A program made the translations under genes and the position numbers. A DNA stretch of 64,000 nucleotides from Escherichia phage SF. The notes under the pieces are model-generated. The model was not told where the DNA came from and made no database searches. It was given only the letters and a program-made list of their open reading frames with translations. How positions within the stretch are numbered: the stretch's first letter is position 1; every line of letters begins with the position of its first letter. This document shows, in pieces, positions 2,928 through 61,327 of this stretch. The stretch lies in sequence record MH359124; one strand, 5' to 3'.

Positions 2928-3103
2928 ACAGAATAGTAAAATGGTTTAAAAGCTGGAATGATGGAGTCGGACCAGAAGATTGGTTAGATGTTTTTGAAGA
3001 GAAAATGGTCAAAGAACTCCAGAAACATGAAGAGAAGCTCGTCGAAGATGAAGGCGAACGTATTGTAAAACTTTATATGGGTGAACCATCGAGGAAATTA
3101 TAA
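2924..3103 (+). CDS. hypothetical protein
   Basis: ATGA start/stop overlap with upstream ORF and TAATG overlap with downstream ORF, typical T4 gene packing; 59 aa. Confidence 0.35.
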   Translation: MNRIVKWFKSWNDGVGPEDWLDVFEEKMVKELQKHEEKLVEDEGERIVKLYMGEPSRKL

Positions 3104-3567
3104 TGGATGCTATGCTATTTAAAATGTATTTGCTTGAAGCCAAGTCGTTTAAACATATACCAGTAGAAGATAAGACTCCACTAGAAATAGCTATTCTCAT
3201 TAACAAATGTCTAAATAATCCGCAATATATCGTAGAAGAATTCTGCAAATTGCAGATTCCTAAAGGTTACAAAATTCGTGTAGAGCGAGTTGGAGCTATT
3301 ACTCGTTCTAAAAATTCTCCGTTTAGTCTTGAAGAAGGCATAAAGGACTTAGGTTATGAATCTACGGAAAATGCCGTTTATGTGAATCCAGAAAAGCGTT
3401 TAGATTTGTTTGAAAAGCGAGACCATAAGTATTTTGCCAAAAAATACTTTATTACGTCATTAGCAGATTTAATCCATTTGCAACGAGCTATTTGGAAATT
3501 TTTTAAGACAAAAGGTGTAGCGCTAGAAACATTCTCCGAACCTGCTAGTTTTTATCTCGGTGAATAA
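3103..3567 (+). CDS. hypothetical protein (soc-modB interval)
   Basis: 154 aa ORF, translationally coupled to neighbours. Confidence 0.5.
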   Translation: MDAMLFKMYLLEAKSFKHIPVEDKTPLEIAILINKCLNNPQYIVEEFCKLQIPKGYKIRVERVGAITRSKNSPFSLEEGIKDLGYESTENAVYVNPEKRLDLFEKRDHKYFAKKYFITSLADLIHLQRAIWKFFKTKGVALETFSEPASFYLGE

Positions 3568-3964: not shown

Positions 3965-4546
3965 ATGACATGTCAATCTGAACTTCAAGAACGCGAATAC
4001 CTAACAAATCTGATTGATAGCAAATTCACCCGCCAAGAACAAAACATTCTCTGGGCTTGCACAGATTCTAAGGAAGACCCGGATTTCCACTATGAATTAG
4101 ACCATCTTGTTCGTAAGCATATGACTTCTACAGTACCAGTAGAACTCTACCGCGGTGTAACTCCAGAAGAAGTAGAACGTCTTTCCCTTCTTTCTGTTGG
4201 ATGTCATTGGTCTCCTGGACGAGTAACATCATTCACAACTGATTTCAGTACAGCTCGTCAATTCTCCGGGAGTTGGGAGTATCAGACGTACACTATTCTT
4301 AGTCTCAGGAATGCTCCATTCATTTTTGATTACTACCAAAACATGGTTAACATTGTACTTGCCGGAAAGAACCCTAAGCATGTTATGGAAGAAACACGTG
4401 TTGACGTCCTAGATATGATTGAATCTGAACAAGAGTACATGGTCTCAGGTATCTCTAGATTTGAGATTGTGGAAATTGAAGACTTAGAATATGACCCTTT
4501 ATCTCAGTTATACAAAATCATTCATTTAAAAATGTTGAATTTTTAG
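3965..4546 (+). CDS. modB: ADP-ribosyltransferase, ModB-like (R-S-E class)
   Basis: 193 aa; YRG (Arg), TSFTT (STS), ESEQEYM (catalytic Glu) motifs; paralog of next gene; position as in T4 modB-modA-srd-dda. Confidence 0.7.
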   Translation: MTCQSELQEREYLTNLIDSKFTRQEQNILWACTDSKEDPDFHYELDHLVRKHMTSTVPVELYRGVTPEEVERLSLLSVGCHWSPGRVTSFTTDFSTARQFSGSWEYQTYTILSLRNAPFIFDYYQNMVNIVLAGKNPKHVMEETRVDVLDMIESEQEYMVSGISRFEIVEIEDLEYDPLSQLYKIIHLKMLNF

Positions 4547-4603: not shown

Positions 4604-5212
4604 ATGTTTATGCCGTATAATGAATGTGAAATTGAGGAAATGGTTCGACGTGCTCAATGCCTGGATTATCAAGATATGCTTCAGTACAAAATCGATGAGC
4701 AATTCAGTGACATTGAACAAAGTGTACTATGGCAGTGTATGGAAAACAAGCCTGATAGCATCCAACAAGATTTAAGTGCAATCGTTCGTAGAAATTGGTC
4801 TTCTTCAGTTCCTGAGACAATGTATCGTGGAATCTCTAAGAAAACTATGGCCACACTCGATGATAAAGGCATTGGTAGTATTATTAAATTTGACAGAGTA
4901 ATGAGCTTCAGCCCAGTGTTCGGTGTAGCACGTAACTTTGCTTCATATAATTTTTACGGAACATTTAATATGTTCTGCATCAAAGATGCACCATTTGCTT
5001 TCAACTTCCGTGAACATATGCTTAATATGATTCTGGCTGCACCATCTTGCGAGTTCAATGGAGCTTTCCCTGAAGCGACAAGACGGTCTAATGCTAGACT
5101 TATATCTGACGAATGTGAATTTATGCTCCCTATAGGGACTACACTGCGTGTAGATTCTATTATTCAAGATGGACGTTATACAATCTGGAATCTGTCTATT
5201 GTCGGTTACTGA
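4604..5212 (+). CDS. modA: ADP-ribosyltransferase, ModA-like (R-S-E class)
   Basis: 202 aa; MYRG, MSFSP, SDECEFMLP motifs; paralogous to preceding ORF. Confidence 0.7.
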   Translation: MFMPYNECEIEEMVRRAQCLDYQDMLQYKIDEQFSDIEQSVLWQCMENKPDSIQQDLSAIVRRNWSSSVPETMYRGISKKTMATLDDKGIGSIIKFDRVMSFSPVFGVARNFASYNFYGTFNMFCIKDAPFAFNFREHMLNMILAAPSCEFNGAFPEATRRSNARLISDECEFMLPIGTTLRVDSIIQDGRYTIWNLSIVGY

Positions 5213-6113: not shown

Positions 6114-6425
6114 ATGGTTTATGTATATGCAATAGTTTATCGAGATATGGAAGGATTTACTGTCCCGGTTCCACTTGATGAGCATCGTCCTGCAGTATTT
6201 TTTAGAAAGGATATTGCAGATAAAGTTTTCGATACTTTGAAAACACAGTATAAAACAGATTTAAAAATGGGAGTTCTAAGAATGGTCGAAACTCCGCGTA
6301 AGTTCTGGTTTAATAAGCTTGAAATGAAACACGTTAAACTAGATGCGGAGACGCAAAGATTGTATCAACGAATCCTGGATACAGGCCGTATTGTTAGTAT
6401 TCCAATTGCAGGGACTTTACGATGA
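6114..6425 (+). CDS. hypothetical protein (dda.1 position)
   Basis: 103 aa; ATGA overlap with dda start. Confidence 0.5.
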   Translation: MVYVYAIVYRDMEGFTVPVPLDEHRPAVFFRKDIADKVFDTLKTQYKTDLKMGVLRMVETPRKFWFNKLEMKHVKLDAETQRLYQRILDTGRIVSIPIAGTLR

Positions 6426-7735
6426 CATTTGATGATTTGACTGAAGGTCAGAAAAACGCCTTCAACGTTGTTATGAACGCCATTAAAGAAAAGAAACATC
6501 ACGTAACTATTAATGGGCCTGCTGGCACAGGTAAAACAACCCTTACTAGATTCATCGTTGAAGCCCTTATTTCTTCTGGAGAATCAGGTATTATTTTAGC
6601 AGCCCCTACACATGCTGCTAAAAAGGTTCTAAGCAAACTTGCGGGTCAAGAAGCATCGACTATTCATAGCATTCTTAAAATCAACCCAACTACATACGAA
6701 GAAAACGTATTGTTTGAACAGAAAAAGGTCCCCGACTTAGCCTTGTGCCGTGTACTGTTATTTGATGAAGCGTCAATGTGCGACCGTTCTCTGTTTAAAA
6801 TAATGTTAGCTAGTATCCCTAAATGGTGTACAGTAATTGGAATCGGCGACCGATGCCAGATTCGTCCGGTAGACCCAGGCGAATCAACTGCGTATCTAAG
6901 TCCTTTCTTCACTCACAAAGACTTCGTGCAATGCAACCTTACAGAAGTTAAACGTAGCAATGCACCAATTATTGATGTTGCGACTGATATTCGTAATGGT
7001 AAATGGATTTACGATAAAGTAGTTGATGGACACGGTGTTCATGGATATACAGACCTTAAATCGTATATGATGAACTATTTTAACGTCGTTAAAACTCCTG
7101 AAGACCTTTTCGAAAATCGAATGATGGCATTCACAAATAAGTCGGTGGACAAGTTAAATTCAATTATTCGCCGAAAACTTCTTGAAACAGAAAAACCGTT
7201 TATTAAAGACGAGGTCATTGTTCTACAAGAGCCATTTACTAAGACATATAAGCTAGATGGTAAAAATATGACCGAAATGCTTTTCAATAACGGCCAATTC
7301 GTTCGTATTCGAGATGCTGTAGAAACGTCTACATTCGTTAAAGCACGTGGTGTTTCAGGCGAATATATGATACGATACTGGAATCTTACAGTAGAAACAT
7401 ATGGGGATGATGAAGAATACATCCGCGAAGATATAAAGGTTATTTCTTCTGAAGAAGAGCTTTATAAATTCAATTTGTTTTTAGCTAAGACCGCAGAAAC
7501 ATACAAATTTTGGAATAAAGGTGGTAAAGCTCCATGGAGCGAATTCTGGGATGCTAAACGTATGTTCACTAAGGTGAAGGCACTACCAGTATCAACCTTC
7601 CATAAAGCCCAGGGTATGTCTGTTGACACAGCCTTTGTTTATACACCGTGTATCCATTATGCCGATTCAGAATTAGCTAAACAGTTATTGTATGTCGGCA
7701 CAACTCGTGGTCGTTTTGACGTCCATTTTATTTGA
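6422..7735 (+). CDS. dda: Dda DNA helicase (SF1B)
   Basis: 437 aa; Walker A GPAGTGKTT, near-colinear with recalled T4 Dda from the first residues (MTFDDLTEGQKNAFN...). Confidence 0.95.
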   Translation: MTFDDLTEGQKNAFNVVMNAIKEKKHHVTINGPAGTGKTTLTRFIVEALISSGESGIILAAPTHAAKKVLSKLAGQEASTIHSILKINPTTYEENVLFEQKKVPDLALCRVLLFDEASMCDRSLFKIMLASIPKWCTVIGIGDRCQIRPVDPGESTAYLSPFFTHKDFVQCNLTEVKRSNAPIIDVATDIRNGKWIYDKVVDGHGVHGYTDLKSYMMNYFNVVKTPEDLFENRMMAFTNKSVDKLNSIIRRKLLETEKPFIKDEVIVLQEPFTKTYKLDGKNMTEMLFNNGQFVRIRDAVETSTFVKARGVSGEYMIRYWNLTVETYGDDEEYIREDIKVISSEEELYKFNLFLAKTAETYKFWNKGGKAPWSEFWDAKRMFTKVKALPVSTFHKAQGMSVDTAFVYTPCIHYADSELAKQLLYVGTTRGRFDVHFI

Positions 7736-54276: not shown

Positions 54277-54282
54277 TTTTAG

Positions 54283-54304
54283 GGAGACTTCGGTCTCCCT
54301 TTTG
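54283..54304 (+). terminator. rho-independent terminator
   Basis: gggagac-ttcg-gtctccc + TTTT, identical to the hairpin at 39182. Confidence 0.55.
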
Positions 54305-54335
54305 TGTGTTTAGGGCAGAAAAAGTTTAAAAAGAT

Positions 54336-54365
54336 GTTTACTCTCCTATAGGATGTGTTACTATA
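54336..54365 (+). promoter_or_regulatory. early promoter
   Basis: GTTTAC, then GTTACTATAGAC cassette. Confidence 0.45.
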
Positions 54366-54405
54366 GACTTGTACCACCTAATCAATAAAACAACCGGAGA
54401 ATAAA

Positions 54406-54777
54406 ATGAACACTATCAATTTAAATGCTACAGTTAAATGCCATGACCATGATGGATATAAATCTCAAGTTGTTAACGAGTTACAGTGGATGGTTCGTTC
54501 AGTTCAAGGTGATGTAGTTTATTGTACAACTCCTGATGGCCCTTCAGACGATTTTTGTTATCATATCGAAATCGAAAACTTTTTCACTGGTGAAATTTAC
54601 CGTCTGAATTCTACAGTTTATGGTTGTATTCGTTCTAAAACTTACGAAGACGAAGAGACTGGTTACTCTGAAGATGTTGTATGGTACGAAAATGCCAGAA
54701 ATCGCGCAGAGGCATTAATCGAGAAGATTAAAGCAAAAGGTGTTATTGATTCAGCTAAGTGGACAAAAATCAAATAA
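54406..54777 (+). CDS. hypothetical protein
   Basis: 123 aa, Cys/His-containing. Confidence 0.5.
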   Translation: MNTINLNATVKCHDHDGYKSQVVNELQWMVRSVQGDVVYCTTPDGPSDDFCYHIEIENFFTGEIYRLNSTVYGCIRSKTYEDEETGYSEDVVWYENARNRAEALIEKIKAKGVIDSAKWTKIK

Positions 54778-54781
54778 AAAT

Positions 54782-54821
54782 GTTTACTTTGGTACAGGTT
54801 TTGTTATTATAGACCTGTACC
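54782..54821 (+). promoter_or_regulatory. early promoter with 9-bp stem (GGTACAGGT/ACCTGTACC)
   Basis: GTTTAC at 54782; inverted repeat around TTGTTATTATAG. Confidence 0.5.
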
Positions 54822-54851
54822 AACAAACAACTTAAACATCTGGAGAATAAA

Positions 54852-55217
54852 ATGAACTACATCAACTTTGAACGCAAATATGTTTCTAACGGTATCGCCG
54901 GTTCTATTGATACGATTTGCTTATGGAAACATAAAAATGGTTCAGTATGTGAAATTGAGCAGTATATGACTCCTAATTACGTTTATATGCGATTTGAAAA
55001 TGGCATCACGGTTTCAATCACAATGGACGGTTCCAACTTCAAAATTGCATTAGATGACGATTTCCGTCAACGTGATTTAGGTACTCATCCTTGCTGGAAT
55101 GGTGATAATCGTAAACTTCTGGTTAAAACTTGGATTCGTCATATCCTGAGTAACCGAGCTAAACCTGAACATCTCGAAGCAATCTTTGATGTAGTTCTTA
55201 ACGAATTCGATATCTAA
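54852..55217 (+). CDS. hypothetical protein
   Basis: 121 aa. Confidence 0.5.
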   Translation: MNYINFERKYVSNGIAGSIDTICLWKHKNGSVCEIEQYMTPNYVYMRFENGITVSITMDGSNFKIALDDDFRQRDLGTHPCWNGDNRKLLVKTWIRHILSNRAKPEHLEAIFDVVLNEFDI

Positions 55218-55228
55218 TCTTAAAAATG

Positions 55229-55248
55229 GAGGCTTCGGCCTCCTTTGA
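55229..55248 (+). terminator. putative terminator hairpin
   Basis: ggaggc-ttcg-gcctcc + TTT. Confidence 0.45.
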
Positions 55249-55258
55249 GGAAAATATT

Positions 55259-55546
55259 ATGTTTATGACCACTTATTTTGATACTCGTAAAAATTTCTGT
55301 GAAGTTGTTTTCTCTAAAGCTGGTAAAGATGTTCCTGCCGACAAACAACCTACTCGTGAATCTATTAAGGCTTATGCTGATGTTGTATGCCCGGTAGAAT
55401 TCCGTACTGTTAATGGACGTGATACCCTAGCAATCACTAAGCTCAACCGTGACATCAATATCGACCCAAGTGTCGCCCGTGAAGTCAATACCTCTGACAT
55501 CTATGGTGGTAATGTTAAAGCCCATGGCTTTCAGATGAGGTTCTAA
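55259..55546 (+). CDS. hypothetical protein
   Basis: Start moved to ATG 55259 downstream of the hairpin; 95 aa. Confidence 0.45.
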   Translation: MFMTTYFDTRKNFCEVVFSKAGKDVPADKQPTRESIKAYADVVCPVEFRTVNGRDTLAITKLNRDINIDPSVAREVNTSDIYGGNVKAHGFQMRF

Positions 55547-55740
55547 TGCAACTATTCTTATCACAAACAGTCAAGTTAAAAGGTGTAGGTATTCCTGGAA
55601 TGATTTCAAAGGTTCTACCTGCTTTTAAATTAGGTAATGTTATTATTAAAGAAGCCTACACCGTCTTATGGGTCGATGGAACTGAAGACGTTCGCATGGG
55701 TGGTGAACTGTCTGTAATCAAATGTTTAAAGCGAGGATAA
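55546..55740 (+). CDS. hypothetical protein
   Basis: 64 aa. Confidence 0.4.
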   Translation: MQLFLSQTVKLKGVGIPGMISKVLPAFKLGNVIIKEAYTVLWVDGTEDVRMGGELSVIKCLKRG

Positions 55741-55741
55741 T

Positions 55742-55960
55742 ATGCTTAAGAAATTGATTCAGAAATTATTAGGTACGGAAATGATCGAAGTTACTTATCG
55801 TGTAACAGACGTTTTTCCATATTATGCAGAAAACCGTTTAGAACCATACGTTACGTCAATTAAAATGCCTAAAAATGATGGAAATTTATCTATCGAAGAC
55901 CGTATACCTGGATACGGCCATTGGGCTGATGTTGAAATTATAAGTGTTAAAGATGTCTGA
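55742..55960 (+). CDS. hypothetical protein
   Basis: 72 aa. Confidence 0.4.
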   Translation: MLKKLIQKLLGTEMIEVTYRVTDVFPYYAENRLEPYVTSIKMPKNDGNLSIEDRIPGYGHWADVEIISVKDV

Positions 55961-56411
55961 ATTAGAAATAAGAAGCAATTTCAAATGGCCGTCATGTGCA
56001 TTAAGTAACTTTGCTCAATGGCCTTTCGTTATGGATGGTATTCAATTCGGAGGACTTGAAGGATTTCTCCAAGGATGTAAGGTGAAAAATGTTGAACAAC
56101 AAAGACGTATATTTGGGTTGTCTGGATTGGCTGCACAGCAAGCTGGAAGGTCTTATGCAAGAGCTCAGGACCGTGGGACTCTCTTCTGGTTAGGAGTTCC
56201 ATTTTCAAGATACTCCGAAGCGTGGAAAGAATTATACACAAATGCATATTTTGAAGCCGCGATCCAAAACAAGGGGTTTCGTGATGCCTTACAAGCCTCT
56301 AAAGGAAAAATTTTGAAGCACAGCATGGCCAGCCACCTAACAAAAGATGATACAATACTAACCGAAGCTGAATTTATTGATGTGTTAAACCTATTAAGAG
56401 ACTCTTTATGA
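55944..56411 (+). CDS. NADAR (YbiA-like, DUF1768) domain protein; putative ADP-ribose/N-glycoside hydrolase
   Basis: 155 aa; LSNFAQWPF..DG..F...E.FLQ pattern resembles the E. coli YbiA core (FSNFAAWPI..DG..W.TSEHYFQ). Confidence 0.55.
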   Translation: MLKMSELEIRSNFKWPSCALSNFAQWPFVMDGIQFGGLEGFLQGCKVKNVEQQRRIFGLSGLAAQQAGRSYARAQDRGTLFWLGVPFSRYSEAWKELYTNAYFEAAIQNKGFRDALQASKGKILKHSMASHLTKDDTILTEAEFIDVLNLLRDSL

Positions 56412-57223
56412 AACCTACTATTTTGACTGATATTGATGGTGTATGTTTAAGCTGGCAATCTGGACTTCCTTATTTTGCCCAAAAATATAATCTTCCATTA
56501 GAACATATTTTAAAAATGATTCAGGACGAAAAATTTATTTCTCCTGGTAAACTATTCAATACCGACGATAACCTCGGTAAACAATTAATAGAAAAATATA
56601 ATCGCTCTGATTTTATTCGTTACTTAGCGCCTTATTCGGATGCTCTTCGAGTTATCAATAAATTAAAAGAAGACTATAATTTTGTAGCCGTGACGGCGCT
56701 AGGTGATTCAATTGATGCTCGATTGAATAGACAATTTAATTTGAATGCTTTGTTCCCAGGTGCCTTTTCTGAAGTAATGATGTGTGGTCATGATTCTTCA
56801 AAGGAACAATTATTCGAACTAGCTAAAACAAAATATAACGTGATTTGTTACGTTGACGATTTAGCTCATCACTGTGACCATGCAGCAGAAATTCTTAATG
56901 TACCGATTTATTGGTTGGCTCGTGGTGAACGTGATGCCATTCCTCGTACTGCACAACGTGTACACACGTGGGATGATATTGAATCTCGTTTGGTTCCACC
57001 CGAGCATAATTCAGATTCAGATCGTGAAGACCTTTTAAAACGATTGGCGGATTTGCTTAAAGAATCTGGTACAACAAGTCCAGGTGCATGGCCTAATCAA
57101 ATTGGCGGTCCGTCGAATCCGTATACCTGGCGAACCCCAGGACCAACCGATATGCAGCCATGGTGGACGATTCAAAACTTTCCTTTAGATTCGTCCAAAT
57201 GGACTTGGTCTACAAATTGTTAA
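56408..57223 (+). CDS. HAD-superfamily phosphatase (putative 5'-nucleotidase-like) with Trp/Pro-rich C-terminal tail
   Basis: 271 aa; HAD motif I DIDGV near N-terminus, downstream VDD motif; ATGA-coupled to the NADAR ORF. Confidence 0.5.
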   Translation: MKPTILTDIDGVCLSWQSGLPYFAQKYNLPLEHILKMIQDEKFISPGKLFNTDDNLGKQLIEKYNRSDFIRYLAPYSDALRVINKLKEDYNFVAVTALGDSIDARLNRQFNLNALFPGAFSEVMMCGHDSSKEQLFELAKTKYNVICYVDDLAHHCDHAAEILNVPIYWLARGERDAIPRTAQRVHTWDDIESRLVPPEHNSDSDREDLLKRLADLLKESGTTSPGAWPNQIGGPSNPYTWRTPGPTDMQPWWTIQNFPLDSSKWTWSTNC

Positions 57224-57232
57224 GGGTTAATT

Positions 57233-57502
57233 ATGTTTGTAGTTCATGATATTACAGATGGCAAAAACACAACGCGTGACTACGGTCACGTTAACATGTT
57301 CTTTCGAGACTGTCCATTGTTTCGTTCAGTAAAAGACGCAGAAATATTTAAAGAGTGTGTTGAACAAGGGTTCATCTACATTTCAGAATATTATGTTGAA
57401 GGTCTCGGTAAATGGATTACCACTTATCAGAAAACGCTGAAATCGCTTCTAGATGAAGTGGCTTATAATAGAACCGTAACCAAAATCGAGGACATCAAAT
57501 GA
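57233..57502 (+). CDS. hypothetical protein
   Basis: 89 aa; ATGA overlap with ligase start. Confidence 0.45.
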   Translation: MFVVHDITDGKNTTRDYGHVNMFFRDCPLFRSVKDAEIFKECVEQGFIYISEYYVEGLGKWITTYQKTLKSLLDEVAYNRTVTKIEDIK

Positions 57503-58992
57503 TTTTAGATATTTTAAACCAAATAGCTGCGATCGGTTCTACTAAAACAAAACAAGAAATCCTTAAGAAAAATAAGGACAACAAATTACTTGAACGTGTG
57601 TATCGTTTAACATATGCACGTGGTATCCAGTATTATATTAAGAAATGGCCAGGACCGGGTGAAAGGTCTCAAGCATATGGTCTTCTTGAATTAGATGACA
57701 TGTTGGATTTTATTGAGTTCACATTAGCCACTCGTAAACTCACTGGTAATGCCGCAATTAAAGAGCTCATGGGTTATATCGCTGACGGTAAACCTGATGA
57801 TGTAGAAGTCCTTCGTCGTGTAATGATGCGCGACCTTGAAGTAGGTGCTTCAGTGTCTATCGCGAATAAGGTGTGGCCTGGACTTATTCAATTGCAACCA
57901 CAGATGTTAGCATCTGCATATGATGAGAAATTGATTACTAAAAATATTAAATGGCCCGCATTTGCCCAATTAAAAGCAGATGGTGCTCGTTGTTTCGCTG
58001 AAGTTCGCGATGATGGTGTTCAATTCTTTTCTCGTGCCGGTAACGAATACCATAGTCTTACTCTATTAGCGGATGAACTAATGGAAATGACTAAAGAAGC
58101 TCGTGAAAGACACCCTAATGGGGTTTTAATCGACGGTGAATTAGTTTATCATTCATTTGATATTAAAAAGGCTGTGAGCTCAGGAAATGACCTGTCGTTC
58201 TTATTTGGTGATAATGAAGAATCTGAAGAAGTACAAGTTGCAGACCGTAGCACTTCAAATGGTCTAGCAAATAAATCTCTTCAAGGGACTATTTCTCCTA
58301 AAGAAGCGGAAGGTATGGTTCTTCAAGCCTGGGACTATGTTCCTTTAGATGAAGTCTATTCTGATGGCAAAATTAAAGGTCAGAAATACGATGTTCGTTT
58401 TGCTGCTCTTGAAAATATGGCTGAAGGCTTTAAGCGAATTGAGCCAATTGAAAATCAGTTAGTTCGTAATCTTGACGAAGCTAAAGTGGTTTATAAAAAA
58501 TATGTCGACCAAGGTCTTGAAGGTATTATCCTTAAAAACCGTGATTCATATTGGGAAAACAAACGCTCTAAGAACCTAATTAAATTTAAAGAAGTTATTG
58601 ATATCGCTTTAGAAGTTGTAGGATACTATGAACACTCTAAAGACCCTAACAAATTAGGTGGTGTCGAACTCGTATCACGTTGTCGTCGTATTACAACCGA
58701 TTGTGGTTCAGGGTTTAAAGATACAACTCATAAAACAGTTGACGGTGTAAAGGTTCTTATTCCTTTAGACGAGCGTCATGATTTGGACCGTGAACGATTA
58801 ATGACCGAAGCTCGTGAAGGTAAATTAATCGGACGTATCGCTGATTGTGAATGTAATGGTTGGGTTCATTCTAAAGGCCGTGAAGGCACTGTAGGTATTT
58901 TCCTTCCAATTATTAAAGGGTTCCGTTTTGATAAAACAGAAGCGGATTCATTTGAAGACGTATTTGGACCGTGGTCCCAGACAGGTTTATAA
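57499..58992 (+). CDS. 30: ATP-dependent DNA ligase gp30
   Basis: 497 aa; MILDILNQIAAIGSTKTKQEILKKNKDN, adenylation motif around AQLKADGAR, C-terminal EDVFG; colinear with recalled T4 ligase. Confidence 0.95.
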   Translation: MILDILNQIAAIGSTKTKQEILKKNKDNKLLERVYRLTYARGIQYYIKKWPGPGERSQAYGLLELDDMLDFIEFTLATRKLTGNAAIKELMGYIADGKPDDVEVLRRVMMRDLEVGASVSIANKVWPGLIQLQPQMLASAYDEKLITKNIKWPAFAQLKADGARCFAEVRDDGVQFFSRAGNEYHSLTLLADELMEMTKEARERHPNGVLIDGELVYHSFDIKKAVSSGNDLSFLFGDNEESEEVQVADRSTSNGLANKSLQGTISPKEAEGMVLQAWDYVPLDEVYSDGKIKGQKYDVRFAALENMAEGFKRIEPIENQLVRNLDEAKVVYKKYVDQGLEGIILKNRDSYWENKRSKNLIKFKEVIDIALEVVGYYEHSKDPNKLGGVELVSRCRRITTDCGSGFKDTTHKTVDGVKVLIPLDERHDLDRERLMTEAREGKLIGRIADCECNGWVHSKGREGTVGIFLPIIKGFRFDKTEADSFEDVFGPWSQTGL

Positions 58993-59180
58993 TGAAAGCT
59001 TATTTAGAAACAGTAGTTGTCACTAATAAAGACGGTAGTGATGTTTCCACCTCTTGTTCACAAATTGTATTAGATTTTCCTAATAACGATTCCTATCATA
59101 TTTTTATGGACAATTTTGATATGTACGAAAAAGGCCCTAATTTTGAAGTTTATCGTACTTTGCTCCCTATTGTGGATTAA
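58992..59180 (+). CDS. hypothetical protein
   Basis: Start moved to ATG 58992 overlapping ligase stop; 62 aa. Confidence 0.4.
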   Translation: MKAYLETVVVTNKDGSDVSTSCSQIVLDFPNNDSYHIFMDNFDMYEKGPNFEVYRTLLPIVD

Positions 59181-59204
59181 GAGCCTTCGGGCTCTTTTTT
59201 TTTG
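59181..59204 (+). terminator. rho-independent terminator
   Basis: gagcc-ttcg-ggctc + T9. Confidence 0.6.
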
Positions 59205-59239: not shown

Positions 59240-61327
59240 ATGTCTGAACAATTAAATGAAGTGTTTGAATCTGAAGGCAGTCTTCCTGTCGTCAATTTGA
59301 ACCCTAAAGCTAAAGTTCCACAAGTCTGGAAGATTGGTGATATTGATACAAACATCGTAGTTCGCTTATTCTCTTACCTTTCTGAAGGCGATGCTGTAAA
59401 ACAAGTTAAACTTGGCGACAAATACGCTCATGTTGTTATTATGAGTCTGTCTGAAAAGGGTAATCTCGCTGAATTGAAAAATGGCCTTGGTCCTGCTCCT
59501 ATTGATGCAATCAACACCATTTTCAATACAGTATATGAACAAGTTAAAGCTCTTCGTATGGATGCAGTTCTGTTCCGATTCCCTACCAAGAAATTGAAAG
59601 GACGTGGACAGCAACTTCAAACTCTTCTTGCTCGTTTAGTTTCTACTAAAACCGGTGGCCGTTTTAAAGTATTGTCGGCAATGTATCAATTCACAGGTAA
59701 ACACACCTATGTGATGATGGTTCGTAAAAATGCTAACATTGAAGATATTAAAGGCATCCCTAACATTAACACAGAGTTGTACACGAAAGTAGATTCTGAT
59801 GTTGGCGAAGTTTATGTGAGTAAAAAGACTGGCGAAAAGGTCACCAAAGAAACGGCTATCGCTGGTTCTATTGCTGCGGTAGAAGAAAAACGTAAAGATA
59901 AGCCTGTTATTGCTCGTACTAAAATTTCTCGTCGTGCTATTGCAGCAAGTCAATCTTTAGAAGCTGACCGTCAAGAAGGTGAGTTATTCCAGAAATACGA
60001 AAATTCTGCTAAAGAAGTTAGCGGCCCAGCTACAGCCGAATTACTTCCTGAAGCATATGAAATCGTACTAGCCCAAGCATCGTCCACAGCAAAAGGCACT
60101 TTAGTTGCTGATATCGAAAATAAGATTTATAATCGCATTGATGAATCCTTTAGATTTGCTGATGAAGTTTCTTATGGTGGTGTTATTAAACCAACTTTAG
60201 AAAAGTTTGCTAAGAAAATTAAAACTGAAAAAACAACATCTGTTAAAGCATTAGCTGCTTTTGTTGAAGCTGCAAATGAAATTGCAGACTCTATTAAAGA
60301 CGAATGGTTTGAAGATTTTAGACGTGATAATTTCCAACTGGCCGACGACGTTTTAGCTGAAGTATCTGAAAAAACTTGGAAACAACGCAAATCAGCGTTC
60401 TTGTCTAATGTGATGTATACTTATGCACGAGAATCGGCTAGAGGCACCTTTAATATAACAATGAATCGGGACCCTAAACAATACTCTGTTGCTGAAAAAC
60501 GAGCTATTCGTGAATATGCCTCTTCTGCGTATACCGATATCAATAATATGTTGTTAGGTCGTTATAAACCAGATTTTTACGATGTTGCAGATGAAGATGA
60601 AGTTAAACGCGCTATTGATGGTCTTGATTCGGCGTTTTTAAATGGAGACCGTTTACCTGAAGGACTAACGTTATATAGAGCTCAGTCTATCAGAATGCCT
60701 ATTTACGAAGCAATGGTTAAAAATAAGGTATTCTACTTCAGAAACTATGTTTCCACTTCACTAGCTCCTATTATTTTCGGTGGGTTTAAAGAGAACGTTG
60801 CCCTTGGACTTGCTCCTGAAGAAGTTCGCAAAGAGCTTAACATTGATAATAACGACGAAGGTGTTACTATTTCTCCTAGTCAAGTAAGAACAGCTATGCA
60901 TGCACCAGAACAAATCCGTGTTAACGTCGGATGGGCTATTGATGGCGCCCATAAAGTTAACGTGATTTATCCTGGACAGTTGAGTAATCACCCTAACGAG
61001 CAAGAAATTATTTTGCCTAGAGGCATTCTCTTGCAGATAAATAAAATTACAGATGCGTCATCTGACACTGGTGCAGGTTTAGAATCCAACCTTAAATTTA
61101 TTCAAGCTGAAGTCATGTCCTCAGACCAGTTGGACGAAGCTGTCATTTACGATGGTGATGTTCTCATGGAAACAGGCGAGGTGGTTGCTATGACGGGTGA
61201 AATCGAATCGGATGAGCCGGTATCGTTCTCTTCATTTGTAGAAAAAACTAGTGCACCTAAAGGTTTGAAATTGTTAGCATCTTTAATGGATTTAGAATCA
61301 GTTCCGTTTAAATTTGTCCAAGGATAG
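59240..61327 (+). CDS. alt: ADP-ribosyltransferase Alt (virion-packaged)
   Basis: 695 aa; C-terminal third colinear with recalled T4 Alt (YEAMVKN.VFYFRNFVSTSL, ILPRG, KITDAS, LIQAEVM, VIYDGD.LMETGE, KFVQG). Confidence 0.9.
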   Translation: MSEQLNEVFESEGSLPVVNLNPKAKVPQVWKIGDIDTNIVVRLFSYLSEGDAVKQVKLGDKYAHVVIMSLSEKGNLAELKNGLGPAPIDAINTIFNTVYEQVKALRMDAVLFRFPTKKLKGRGQQLQTLLARLVSTKTGGRFKVLSAMYQFTGKHTYVMMVRKNANIEDIKGIPNINTELYTKVDSDVGEVYVSKKTGEKVTKETAIAGSIAAVEEKRKDKPVIARTKISRRAIAASQSLEADRQEGELFQKYENSAKEVSGPATAELLPEAYEIVLAQASSTAKGTLVADIENKIYNRIDESFRFADEVSYGGVIKPTLEKFAKKIKTEKTTSVKALAAFVEAANEIADSIKDEWFEDFRRDNFQLADDVLAEVSEKTWKQRKSAFLSNVMYTYARESARGTFNITMNRDPKQYSVAEKRAIREYASSAYTDINNMLLGRYKPDFYDVADEDEVKRAIDGLDSAFLNGDRLPEGLTLYRAQSIRMPIYEAMVKNKVFYFRNYVSTSLAPIIFGGFKENVALGLAPEEVRKELNIDNNDEGVTISPSQVRTAMHAPEQIRVNVGWAIDGAHKVNVIYPGQLSNHPNEQEIILPRGILLQINKITDASSDTGAGLESNLKFIQAEVMSSDQLDEAVIYDGDVLMETGEVVAMTGEIESDEPVSFSSFVEKTSAPKGLKLLASLMDLESVPFKFVQG

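Follow-up and report, generated by a model that had tools for sequence, protein, structure and literature searches.

An intact adfN allele and the neighbouring HAD phosphatase gene 30.2 in the 30.8-to-ligase cluster of an RB69-like phage

Gene 30.3 of the window (the whole stretch of DNA that was analysed, 64,000 nucleotides of Escherichia phage SF, record MH359124) is adfN, present as an intact allele, and gene 30.2, which overlaps its stop codon, encodes a C1-capped HAD phosphatase. Both lie in the early gene cluster that extends from 30.8 to the DNA ligase gene in this RB69-like, T4-type phage (Mosigvirus). It is very probable that 30.3 and 30.2, early genes that lie side by side in the T4-type 30.8-30 cluster, are functionally separable. 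The first-pass annotation had recognized a NADAR protein in the first of the two; this call is correct but already known, AdfN having been published before.

In the explanation that we favor, AdfN would be a free-standing NADAR-superfamily hydrolase that, in a host carrying DarTG1, would release ADP-ribose from the guanines of phage DNA by cutting the N-glycosidic bond, undoing the DarT1 mark so that phage replication could proceed. gp30.2 would be a Mg-dependent HAD phosphomonoesterase with a helical C1 cap, and its substrate class, which we infer, would most likely be a small nucleotide-like phosphoester. It would stand outside the anti-DarT mechanism, with the DNA ligase gene as its conserved neighbor. 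The ATGA overlap between 30.3 and 30.2 would reflect the tight packing and translational chaining seen throughout the cluster, and not a dedicated two-enzyme module.

Organization of the gene cluster

The features of the cluster, together with the ADP-ribosyltransferase genes of the window, are as follows.

3965-4546 and 4604-5212, + strand: two Mod-type ADP-ribosyltransferases (PHROG 832, 'RNA polymerase ADP-ribosylase', ~1e-38), ~51 kb upstream
54281..54300, + strand: terminator-like hairpin, AGGGAGAC-TTCG-GTCTCCCT followed by a T-run, closing the upstream unit just 5' of the 30.8 promoter
54336..54364, + strand: T4 early-promoter-like site (GTTTAC, 17 nt, TACTAT) 5' of 30.8, read from the sequence
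54406..54777, + strand: gene 30.8 homologue, 123 aa (Pfam Phage_30_8, 1e-73; RB69 annotation)
54852..55217, + strand: gene 30.7 homologue, 121 aa (Pfam Phage_T4_Gp30_7, 4.8e-53)
55260..55546, + strand: gene 30.6 homologue (PHROG 2153, 3.6e-48, residues 12-106; RB69 annotation)
55546..55740, + strand: gene 30.5 homologue, 64 aa (PHROG 1690, 3.5e-28)
55742..55960, + strand: gene 30.4 homologue, 72 aa (PHROG 2042, 9.4e-35), its last 8 nt overlapping the adfN start
55953..56411, + strand: adfN (gene 30.3), 152 aa, predicted NADAR-superfamily DNA ADP-ribosylglycohydrolase (Pfam Phage_30_3, fold, identity to T4)
56408..56411, + strand: ATGA overlap of the adfN stop and the 30.2 start, read from the sequence; same junction in T4 and Bas46
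56408-57223, + strand: gene 30.2, whole ORF, predicted HAD phosphatase (ORF coordinates, motifs, fold)
56408..56992, + strand: catalytic domain of gene 30.2, residues 1-195, C1-capped HAD phosphatase
56993..57223, + strand: C-terminal tail of gene 30.2, residues 196-271 (pLDDT, alignment, comparison of tails)
57233..57502, + strand: gene 30.1 homologue, 89 aa, DUF3045 (Pfam DUF3045, 1e-26), with an ATGA overlap with the ligase start
57499..58992, + strand: gene 30, ATP-dependent DNA ligase, 497 aa, 99% identical to RB69 gp30
59179..59196, + strand: hairpin resembling a terminator, with a T-run, 3' of ligase and of an alt.1-like ORF
59240..61327, + strand: Alt ADP-ribosyltransferase (Pfam ADPrib_exo_Tox, 6.3e-28; PHROG 802, 1.3e-261)

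The hairpin at 59179..59196 is probably the end of the transcription unit. A scan also detected a similar promoter-plus-RBS module at 54783-54810, upstream of 30.7, which cross-matches the 54336 site in blastn. The five small ORFs that had been pointed out upstream of the pair do exist and are the conserved T4 genes 30.8, 30.7, 30.6, 30.5 and 30.4. The 30.6 ORF is open from 55226 and its family match begins at residue 12, so ATG 55260 is its likely start. Gene 30.5 is missing in RB69, and the blastn alignment to RB69 is interrupted at 55547-55737.

As first described, two ORFs overlapping by ATGA lie upstream of DNA ligase, on the + strand at 56408-56411. At the junction, CTCTTTATGAAACC, the TGA of adfN (56409-56411) and the ATG of 30.2 (56408-56410) form a 4-nt overlap on the + strand, and a Shine-Dalgarno-like GAG is located 7 nt 5' of it. 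This junction is conserved in Tequatrovirus, in Mosigvirus and in a related group whose gp30.3 is ~86% identical. Overlaps or near-abutments are found at 30.6/30.5, 30.5/30.4, 30.4/30.3, 30.3/30.2 and 30.1/30. The ATGA overlap was rejected as a sign of a dedicated pair because like junctions occur cluster-wide, with an identical ATGA at 30.1/ligase.

gp30.3 is AdfN

The start of gp30.3 had been placed at GTG 55944. This codon lies inside 30.4 and was rejected; ATG 55953 is backed by the alignment of the family, by the Pfam match and by the way the gene is annotated in T4, RB69 and Bas46. The internal ORF 30.3' annotated in T4 was also set aside, being 34 aa in the window versus 75 aa in T4.

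The NADAR assignment is backed by profile, fold and catalytic residues. gp30.3 matched Pfam Phage_30_3 at 1.8e-69 (232 bits, cutoff 36). By itself, the window protein gave no match to Pfam NADAR at E <= 1, and as a single sequence it matched nothing in the PDB or NCBIfam. Pfam NADAR was matched by 24 of 67 members of the gp30.3 family (best 1.5e-7). The family profile was needed to reach E. coli YbiA (2b3w, E 0.0046). The AlphaFold2 model (pLDDT 92, pTM 0.88) returned as its top three Foldseek matches 2b3w (E 1.1e-4, TM 0.68), 8bau and 8bat, the NADAR structures YbiA, PnNADAR and GlNADAR, and beyond these three the Foldseek probability never rose above 0.04.

E36, K43 and H123 are all present in the window gp30.3 and are invariant in 67 homologues. 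PMC11257639 reports mutants of E36 and K43; the phage-type histidine of the last strand is described in PMC11125620 and PMC11543638, and the catalytic residues are defined in all three papers. The window protein is identical to T4 gp30.3 at 147 of 152 residues (96.7%), differing by K11R, E89P, I120V, M125I and H128G, and to Bas46 gp30.3 at 149 of 152. Position 128 falls in a lower-confidence loop of the model close to the catalytic strand. The window adfN does not carry the T insertion found at nt 411 in RB69, and its C-terminal helix is of full length and ends ...LNLLRDSL as in T4. The allele is therefore intact and, judged from its sequence, presumably active. Its neighbors are 30.4 and 30.2, with no adjacent DarT-like ORF of the kind that a DarTG1 operon would have, which makes adfN an antitoxin-like orphan, in agreement with what has been published on AdfN.

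T4 AdfN has been reported as an anti-DarTG1 DNA ADP-ribosylglycohydrolase (Johannesman, Carlson and LeRoux, Nat Commun 2025, PMC11825919), and the counter-defence role suggested for the NADAR gene was therefore already demonstrated experimentally, in the 96.7%-identical T4 orthologue (PMC11825919, PMC11125620). [quoted passage not shown] It de-ADP-ribosylates guanosine and not thymidine, and its phenotype is DarTG1-specific. In T4 transposon sequencing, insertions in 30.3 were lost under DarTG1 (log2FC -7.25, adjusted p 0), and adfN was non-essential without DarTG1. In one test, T4 gp30.3 gave no rescue from DarT1 toxicity in E. coli outside infection, which indicates that the action of AdfN in vivo is context-dependent. 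Bas46 is resistant to DarTG1 though its own AdfA is of the non-functional type. Of the T-even phages tested, RB69 alone is sensitive to DarTG1; with its intact adfN, the window phage is predicted to be resistant, unlike RB69. The NARP3 paper names AdfN only in passing.

gp30.2 and its relation to adfN and DNA ligase

The motifs quoted in the first-pass annotation, ALSNFAQWPFVMDGIQFGGLEGFLQG in the first ORF and TDIDGV in the second, are both present, the latter at residues 7-12 of gp30.2. The HAD motifs are D8-x-D10-G-V (I), T96 (II), K132 (III) and D150-D151 (IV). Across 57 homologues, D8, D10, K132, D150 and D151 never vary, and T96 is kept in at least 90%. The model, confident over residues 1-190, has a Rossmannoid HAD core with a helical, four-helix C1-type cap inserted after motif I. 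The tail consists of one helix followed by a Trp/Pro-rich disordered stretch (pLDDT < 50 at residues 230-271); it is hypervariable across lineages and absent in many. Against curated thresholds, gp30.2 reached 15.5 bits with HAD_2 (cutoff 23.8, E 0.019) and 12.7 with TIGR01428 (cutoff 125). Its scores lie below the thresholds of the HAD models, so membership rests on motifs and fold, and on these the HAD assignment made earlier stands.

The substrate indicated by the four-helix cap is a small one. Pfam has no dedicated model for the gp30.2 family, and the weak Pfam matches among the 57 homologues were to Hydrolase (11), NT5C (9) and HAD_2 (7). The window gp30.2 itself did not match NT5C, and the nine homologues did so at E values of at least 0.002. 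Sequence and profile searches of the PDB gave marginal matches only, with cdN at E 0.18-0.5, and the model is structurally similar to cdN but no closer to it than to other HADs. The invariant W16 aligns with the Phe six residues past motif I of cdN. The weak 5'(3')-deoxyribonucleotidase/NT5C matches and W16 are hints, drawn from sequence, of a nucleotidase affinity. A library of 1.84 billion proteins contained 1098 cluster representatives of gp30.2, and no published function was found in the literature on gp30.2 or on 30.2 with 30.3 in T4-like phages. In five distant 30.2-like proteins (P0261, P0297, P0207, P0251 and P0188), the extra regions gave no Pfam match. gp30.2 is of interest as a widespread protein that belongs to no Pfam family and lies next to ligase in almost every T4-like phage of the sample.

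Gene neighborhoods were compared in samples of 80 and 77 loci, in which the counts ignore relatedness. DNA ligase was downstream of the 30.2 orthologue in 72 of 74 loci, and 30.3 was within 5 kb upstream of 30.2 in 37 of 74 (13 of these 37 without a gap). When loci were anchored on 30.3, a 30.2-family HAD was found within 5 kb in 21 of 80 and none in the remaining 59. In several complete genomes, 30.3 and 30.2 are 55-60 kb apart.

The two genes had been proposed to form a counter-defence or recycling module, in which AdfN frees ADP-ribose and the co-translated HAD enzyme processes ADP-ribose or a phosphorylated derivative, or else is needed for full protection. The overlap retained in T4, Bas46 and relatives, and the gapless arrangement in 13 of the 37 linked loci, would suit such a pair. 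In addition, a canonical Pfam NADAR gene divergently adjoins a 30.2-like HAD gene in an unrelated 27-kb contig (L164), and a distant 30.2-like HAD gene is located two genes 5' of the 30.3 homologue in another locus (L035); judging from these two neighborhoods, a looser functional link between NADAR and HAD proteins may exist. However, when T4 was challenged with DarTG1 in transposon sequencing, under one laboratory condition, insertions in 30.2 were neutral (log2FC -0.12, p 0.61) whereas those in 30.3 were lost, and 30.2 was non-essential, tolerating insertions at 72 of 72 TA sites. The mark is removed from DNA in vitro by purified AdfN alone, and RB69 is rescued by AdfN in trans, but RB69 itself possesses an intact 30.2, and the rescue alone therefore cannot exclude a role for this gene. 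Moreover, most 30.3 loci (59 of 80) have no 30.2-family HAD within 5 kb, 30.3 is missing from the vicinity of half of the 30.2 loci, and ADP-ribose is a pyrophosphate diester and no direct substrate of a HAD monoesterase. With 30.2 insertions neutral, AdfN sufficient by itself, 30.2 tracking ligase and overlaps present cluster-wide, we consider a functional module very unlikely, and no annotation of gp30.2 as part of an anti-DarT function is warranted. It is even less credible, to the point of being hardly tenable, that AdfN reverses or edits marks made by the phage's own Alt, ModA and ModB. These three transferases, to which the first-pass annotation had drawn attention, are indeed encoded in the window, with Alt 2.8 kb downstream of adfN and the Mod-type genes syntenic with mrh (3103-3567; Pfam T4_MRH); a 437-aa ORF at 6422-7735 presumably occupies the position of dda, as judged from T4 gene order. 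Their presence does not point to a link with the pair; alt, modA and modB insertions were neutral under DarTG1 in the T4 transposon data and showed no interaction with it. Alt and the Mod enzymes act on protein arginine or on RNA, and adfN, whose phenotype is specific to DarTG1, is dispensable without it. Iyer et al. described the NADAR genes of T4-like phages as early-expressed together with transferases, but what AdfN has been shown to cleave in vitro is ADP-ribose attached to guanine on DNA, the thymidine-linked form remaining uncleaved.

That gp30.2 serves DNA ligase or DNA metabolism, as a nucleotidase or phosphatase trimming the nucleotide pool or a ligation-blocking phosphate, with adfN adjacent only incidentally, is possible though doubtful. 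Ligase lies 3' of 30.2, often by 2-40 nt, in the 72 of 74 loci counted above, but T4-like synteny is largely inherited, so these are not 72 independent events. The linkage does outlast rearrangement: one locus (L162) has the order ligase, 88-aa gene, HAD, and in another (L163) ligase is 1.4 kb downstream. Distant 30.2-like relatives are found near thymidylate synthase and RNA ligase (L165), near dNK, UDG and RecA (L168) and near UDG and RecX (L170), which together with the weak NT5C/deoxyribonucleotidase affinities of gp30.2 favors DNA metabolism. These contexts share a theme of DNA and nucleotide metabolism and no single consistent partner, and one distant relative (L161) stands in an unrelated bacterial context. 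Against a ligase helper, 30.2 is non-essential whereas ligase is essential, the C1 cap speaks against a DNA end as substrate, and with Pnk a 3'-phosphatase is already available to T4. A broader proposal, which we hold to be unlikely as a whole, is that gp30.2 represents a new HAD clade, specific to phages, whose dedicated task lies in a DNA-linked pathway, combined with docking by its tail and a real coupling to its neighbors. One possible role would be the clearing of a nucleotide- or ADP-ribose-derived phosphoester arising from DNA repair, ligation or de-ADP-ribosylation, and the hypervariable Trp/Pro-rich tail could be a lineage-specific docking module. If this were true, the placement of gp30.2 by ligase, and occasionally by NADAR in unrelated contigs, would reflect a real coupling that one transposon screen did not reveal.

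Comparison with known systems

The window gp30.3 is an orthologue of T4 AdfN. Both are 152 aa long, carry E36/K43/H123 and occupy the slot between 30.4 and 30.2 with overlaps of 8 nt and 4 nt. The window copy differs by its five substitutions, and its phage is a Mosigvirus (RB69-like) whereas T4 is a Tequatrovirus. RB69 gp30.3 is of the same lineage as the window copy, and the flanking DNA of the window is 96.7% identical to RB69 from 55737 onward. In RB69, however, the allele is frameshifted and inactive: the T insertion at nt 411 creates a TGA that cuts off the final helix (15 residues) and disrupts the ATGA junction with 30.2. The window is intact at both.

The NADAR fold of gp30.3 is shared with DarG1 and E. 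coli YbiA (PDB 8bat, 8bau, 2b3w), as is the N-terminal motif xLSNF..PF..DG....sxE.F.Q..K with the catalytic Glu and Lys. The catalytic residue of the last strand is His in gp30.3, Asp in DarG1 and Glu in YbiA, and gp30.3 is only 16-20% identical to the NADAR structures 8bat, 8bau and 2b3w. In a published test, T4 gp30.3 was no substitute for DarG1 in uninfected cells.

gp30.2 shares with cdN and mdN (NT5C; PDB 2jao, 2i7d, 1q92) the C1-capped HAD fold, D-x-D-G-V and the DD of motif IV, and with cdN an aromatic residue six positions past motif I (W16 in gp30.2, Phe in cdN). The 3'-phosphatase domain of T4 Pnk (PseT) is a phage HAD-type DxDxT enzyme tied to nucleic-acid end repair. That domain is capless and acts on polynucleotide ends, whereas gp30.2 carries a four-helix C1 cap.

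Gene run from 30.8 to the DNA ligase

The phage is T4-type, and its nearest relatives are RB69-like Mosigvirus genomes. Across 54300-57600, Escherichia phage PHB12 is 98.7% identical to the window, and RB69 shows 93.8% identity across 94% of the region length. The early gene order, as read from the annotated RB69, Bas46 and T4 records, is 30.8, 30.7, 30.6, 30.5, 30.4, 30.3, 30.2, 30.1 and 30 (DNA ligase). The corresponding ORFs matched Pfam Phage_30_8, Phage_T4_Gp30_7, Phage_30_3 and DUF3045 as well as PHROGs 2153, 1690 and 2042. Terminator-like hairpins flank the run, and T4 early-promoter-like sites lie upstream of 30.8 and of 30.7.

Both ORFs described in the first-pass annotation exist, with the motifs it quoted and an ATGA overlap at 56408-56411. 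Its GTG start at 55944 for the first ORF was rejected in favor of the ATG at 55953 (152 aa), a start that the family alignment and the T4 and Bas46 annotations support and that gives an 8-nt overlap with the end of 30.4. The three ADP-ribosyltransferases that it reported are also present, as Alt and two Mod-type enzymes.

Features discussed in the text
3965-4546, Mod-type ADP-ribosyltransferase
4604-5212, Mod-type ADP-ribosyltransferase
54281-54300, terminator-like hairpin on one flank of the run
55742-55960, gene 30.4
55953-56411, gene 30.3
56408-57223, gene 30.2
59179-59196, terminator-like hairpin on the other flank
59240-61327, Alt ADP-ribosyltransferase

The promoter-plus-RBS modules of 30.8 (54329-54422) and 30.7 (54776-54868) are diverged copies of each other with the common pattern GTTTAC ... 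TA(C/T)TAT ... GGAGAATAAAATG, and they cross-match at 75-79% between the window and RB69 copies in blastn. A perfect GC-rich hairpin (GGAGGC-TTCG-GCCTCC, 55228-55243), followed by a short T-run, is found after 30.7 and before the likely start of 30.6; it may serve as a partial terminator or stabilize the RNA. Gene 30.5 (55546-55740) is present in the window, T4 and Bas46 and absent in RB69; the blastn alignment with RB69 is interrupted exactly over this gene. Against T4-like genomes (the compared locus L004), 30.7 (54852-55217) and 30.3 are much better conserved (~96-97% aa, ~90% nt and ~77% third-codon-position identity) than their neighbors 30.4 (~53% aa), 30.1 (~58% aa, 32% at third positions) and the ligase (~63% aa). 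This pattern suggests strong constraint or a relatively recent exchange between lineages.

Identity of the two gene products

Gene 30.3 is adfN. Its product matched Pfam Phage_30_3 at 1.8e-69. The window protein alone gave no match to Pfam NADAR, which is matched by 24 of the 67 family members (best 1.5e-7). The family profile found E. coli YbiA (2b3w, E 0.0046) across the xLSNF...E.F.Q..K motif. PDB structural matches of the AlphaFold2 model (pLDDT 92) were NADAR only: YbiA, Phytophthora NADAR with ADP-ribose and Geobacter NADAR. E36, K43 and H123 are invariant across the family; mutation of E36 or K43 kills T4 AdfN, and a last-strand histidine is the signature of phage NADARs. T4 gp30.3 has been renamed AdfN (anti-DarT factor NADAR) and is necessary and sufficient against DarTG1, a bacterial defense that ADP-ribosylates phage DNA; the purified protein strips ADP-ribose off DarT1-modified DNA (Johannesman, Carlson and LeRoux; PMC11257639, PMC11825919). 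An independent study found that guanosine-linked ADP-ribose is hydrolyzed and the thymidine-linked form is not (PMC11125620). The NADAR assignment and DarT-countering role proposed earlier were correct, for a gene already characterized.

T4 also has an annotated internal out-of-frame ORF, 30.3', of 75 aa. Its equivalent in the window (56089-56193) has the same start position and only 34 aa, which makes conservation of 30.3' as a gene unlikely.

The product of 30.2 is a HAD phosphatase, as first proposed, although it falls below sequence-model thresholds (HAD_2 scored 15.5 bits, with the cutoff at 23.8). All four catalytic motifs (D8-x-D10, T96, K132 and D150-D151) are kept in 57 homologues, and the AlphaFold2 model, confident for residues 1-190, has a helical insertion after motif I that forms a C1 cap. 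The sequence of the Trp/Pro-rich tail (residues 196-271; 56993-57223) is not kept between T4 and the window phage, and many homologues have no such tail; its residues 230-271 are predicted to be disordered and differ entirely from those of T4. A GIEY..(Q/R)PT end motif occurs in several lineages including T4 and is absent from the window phage. A full-library profile search (E <= 0.001) returned 1098 cluster representatives, mostly stand-alone proteins of 190-220 aa. Literature searches for a function of 30.2 found no report.

Proposed partners of gp30.2

Neither published genetics nor gene neighborhoods support the functional pairing of 30.3 and 30.2 put forward in the first-pass annotation, and we consider such a module very improbable. 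Genetics, biochemistry, comparative genomics and the ordinary nature of the overlap all argue against it. In T4 transposon sequencing, 30.3 insertions are lost under DarTG1. In the HIDEN-SEQ supplementary table that shows 30.3 as depleted, which we recognized as the control-versus-DarTG1 comparison by its match to the main text, mean counts fell from 261.0 to 0.7 for 30.3 (log2FC -7.25, adjusted p 0), whereas those for 30.2 were 271.5 and 249.8 (log2FC -0.12, p 0.61). Insertions in alt, modA and modB were likewise unchanged, and T4 tolerated 30.2 insertions at 72/72 TA sites. The only neighbor affected was the upstream gene 30.4 (log2FC -1.79, adjusted p 0.014). Since 30.4 overlaps adfN, its insertions were probably depleted through polarity, the simplest explanation, or through translational coupling to adfN, but 30.4 may have an independent role under DarTG1. 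AdfN by itself is active in vitro and in trans. RB69 was the phage rescued in trans and carries a 30.2 of its own, so the dispensability of 30.2 can be judged only from the in-vitro and transposon data.

Among 80 viral loci anchored on 30.3, a 30.2-family HAD gene lies within 5 kb in 21 and in none of the other 59. Loci anchored on 30.2 orthologues have the ligase downstream in 72 of 74 cases and 30.3 within 5 kb upstream in 37; 13 of these 37 show no gap, and in the others the genes are separated by up to 1252 nt. By contig ranges, at least nine complete genomes place the two genes 55-60 kb from each other. The 30.3/30.2 overlap is not special in the cluster: 30.4/30.3 overlap by 8 nt, 30.6/30.5 by 1 nt and 30.1/ligase by the same ATGA, and the T4 cluster is chained in the same way. 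Three observations, all of them anecdotes, still favor a weaker link between 30.3 and 30.2. Their ATGA junction is kept in Tequatrovirus, Mosigvirus and a group with gp30.3 ~86% identical. In an unrelated 27-kb metagenomic contig (L164, 4391-5588), a 30.2-like HAD gene and a canonical Pfam NADAR gene of 178 aa divergently adjoin each other, and in another locus (L035) a 30.3 homologue has a distant HAD gene two genes upstream of it. A faint NAPRTase match and a QueC-like gene lie near the L164 pair.

The link of 30.2 with the ligase is stronger than that with 30.3. A distant T4-like contig (L162, 3390-5585) carries the DNA ligase, an 88-aa gene and a 30.2-like HAD gene in the reverse of the window order, which indicates that the linkage survives rearrangement; in L163 the HAD gene comes first and the ligase 1.4 kb further. 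Other distant relatives adjoin thymidylate synthase and RNA ligase; dNK, UDG and RecA; or UDG and RecX. These neighborhoods fit a nucleotide- or DNA-metabolism phosphatase. A role of gp30.2 in a ligase or DNA-metabolism pathway is only tentatively proposed, as less likely than not. Caveats are that synteny among T4-like phages is inherited, that the ligase is essential and 30.2 is not, and that a HAD with a cap is unlikely to act on DNA ends.

Comparison with T4, Bas46 and RB69

The window gp30.3 is identical to T4 AdfN at 147/152 residues and to that of the Mosigvirus Bas46 at 149/152. Bas46 is DarTG1-resistant although its own AdfA is of the non-functional type. RB69 is the only DarTG1-sensitive phage among the T-even phages tested, and a T insertion at nt 411 of its 30.3 makes the protein 15 residues shorter. 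In the alignment this insertion is absent from the window, so that the phage has an intact adfN allele and would be expected to resist DarTG1.
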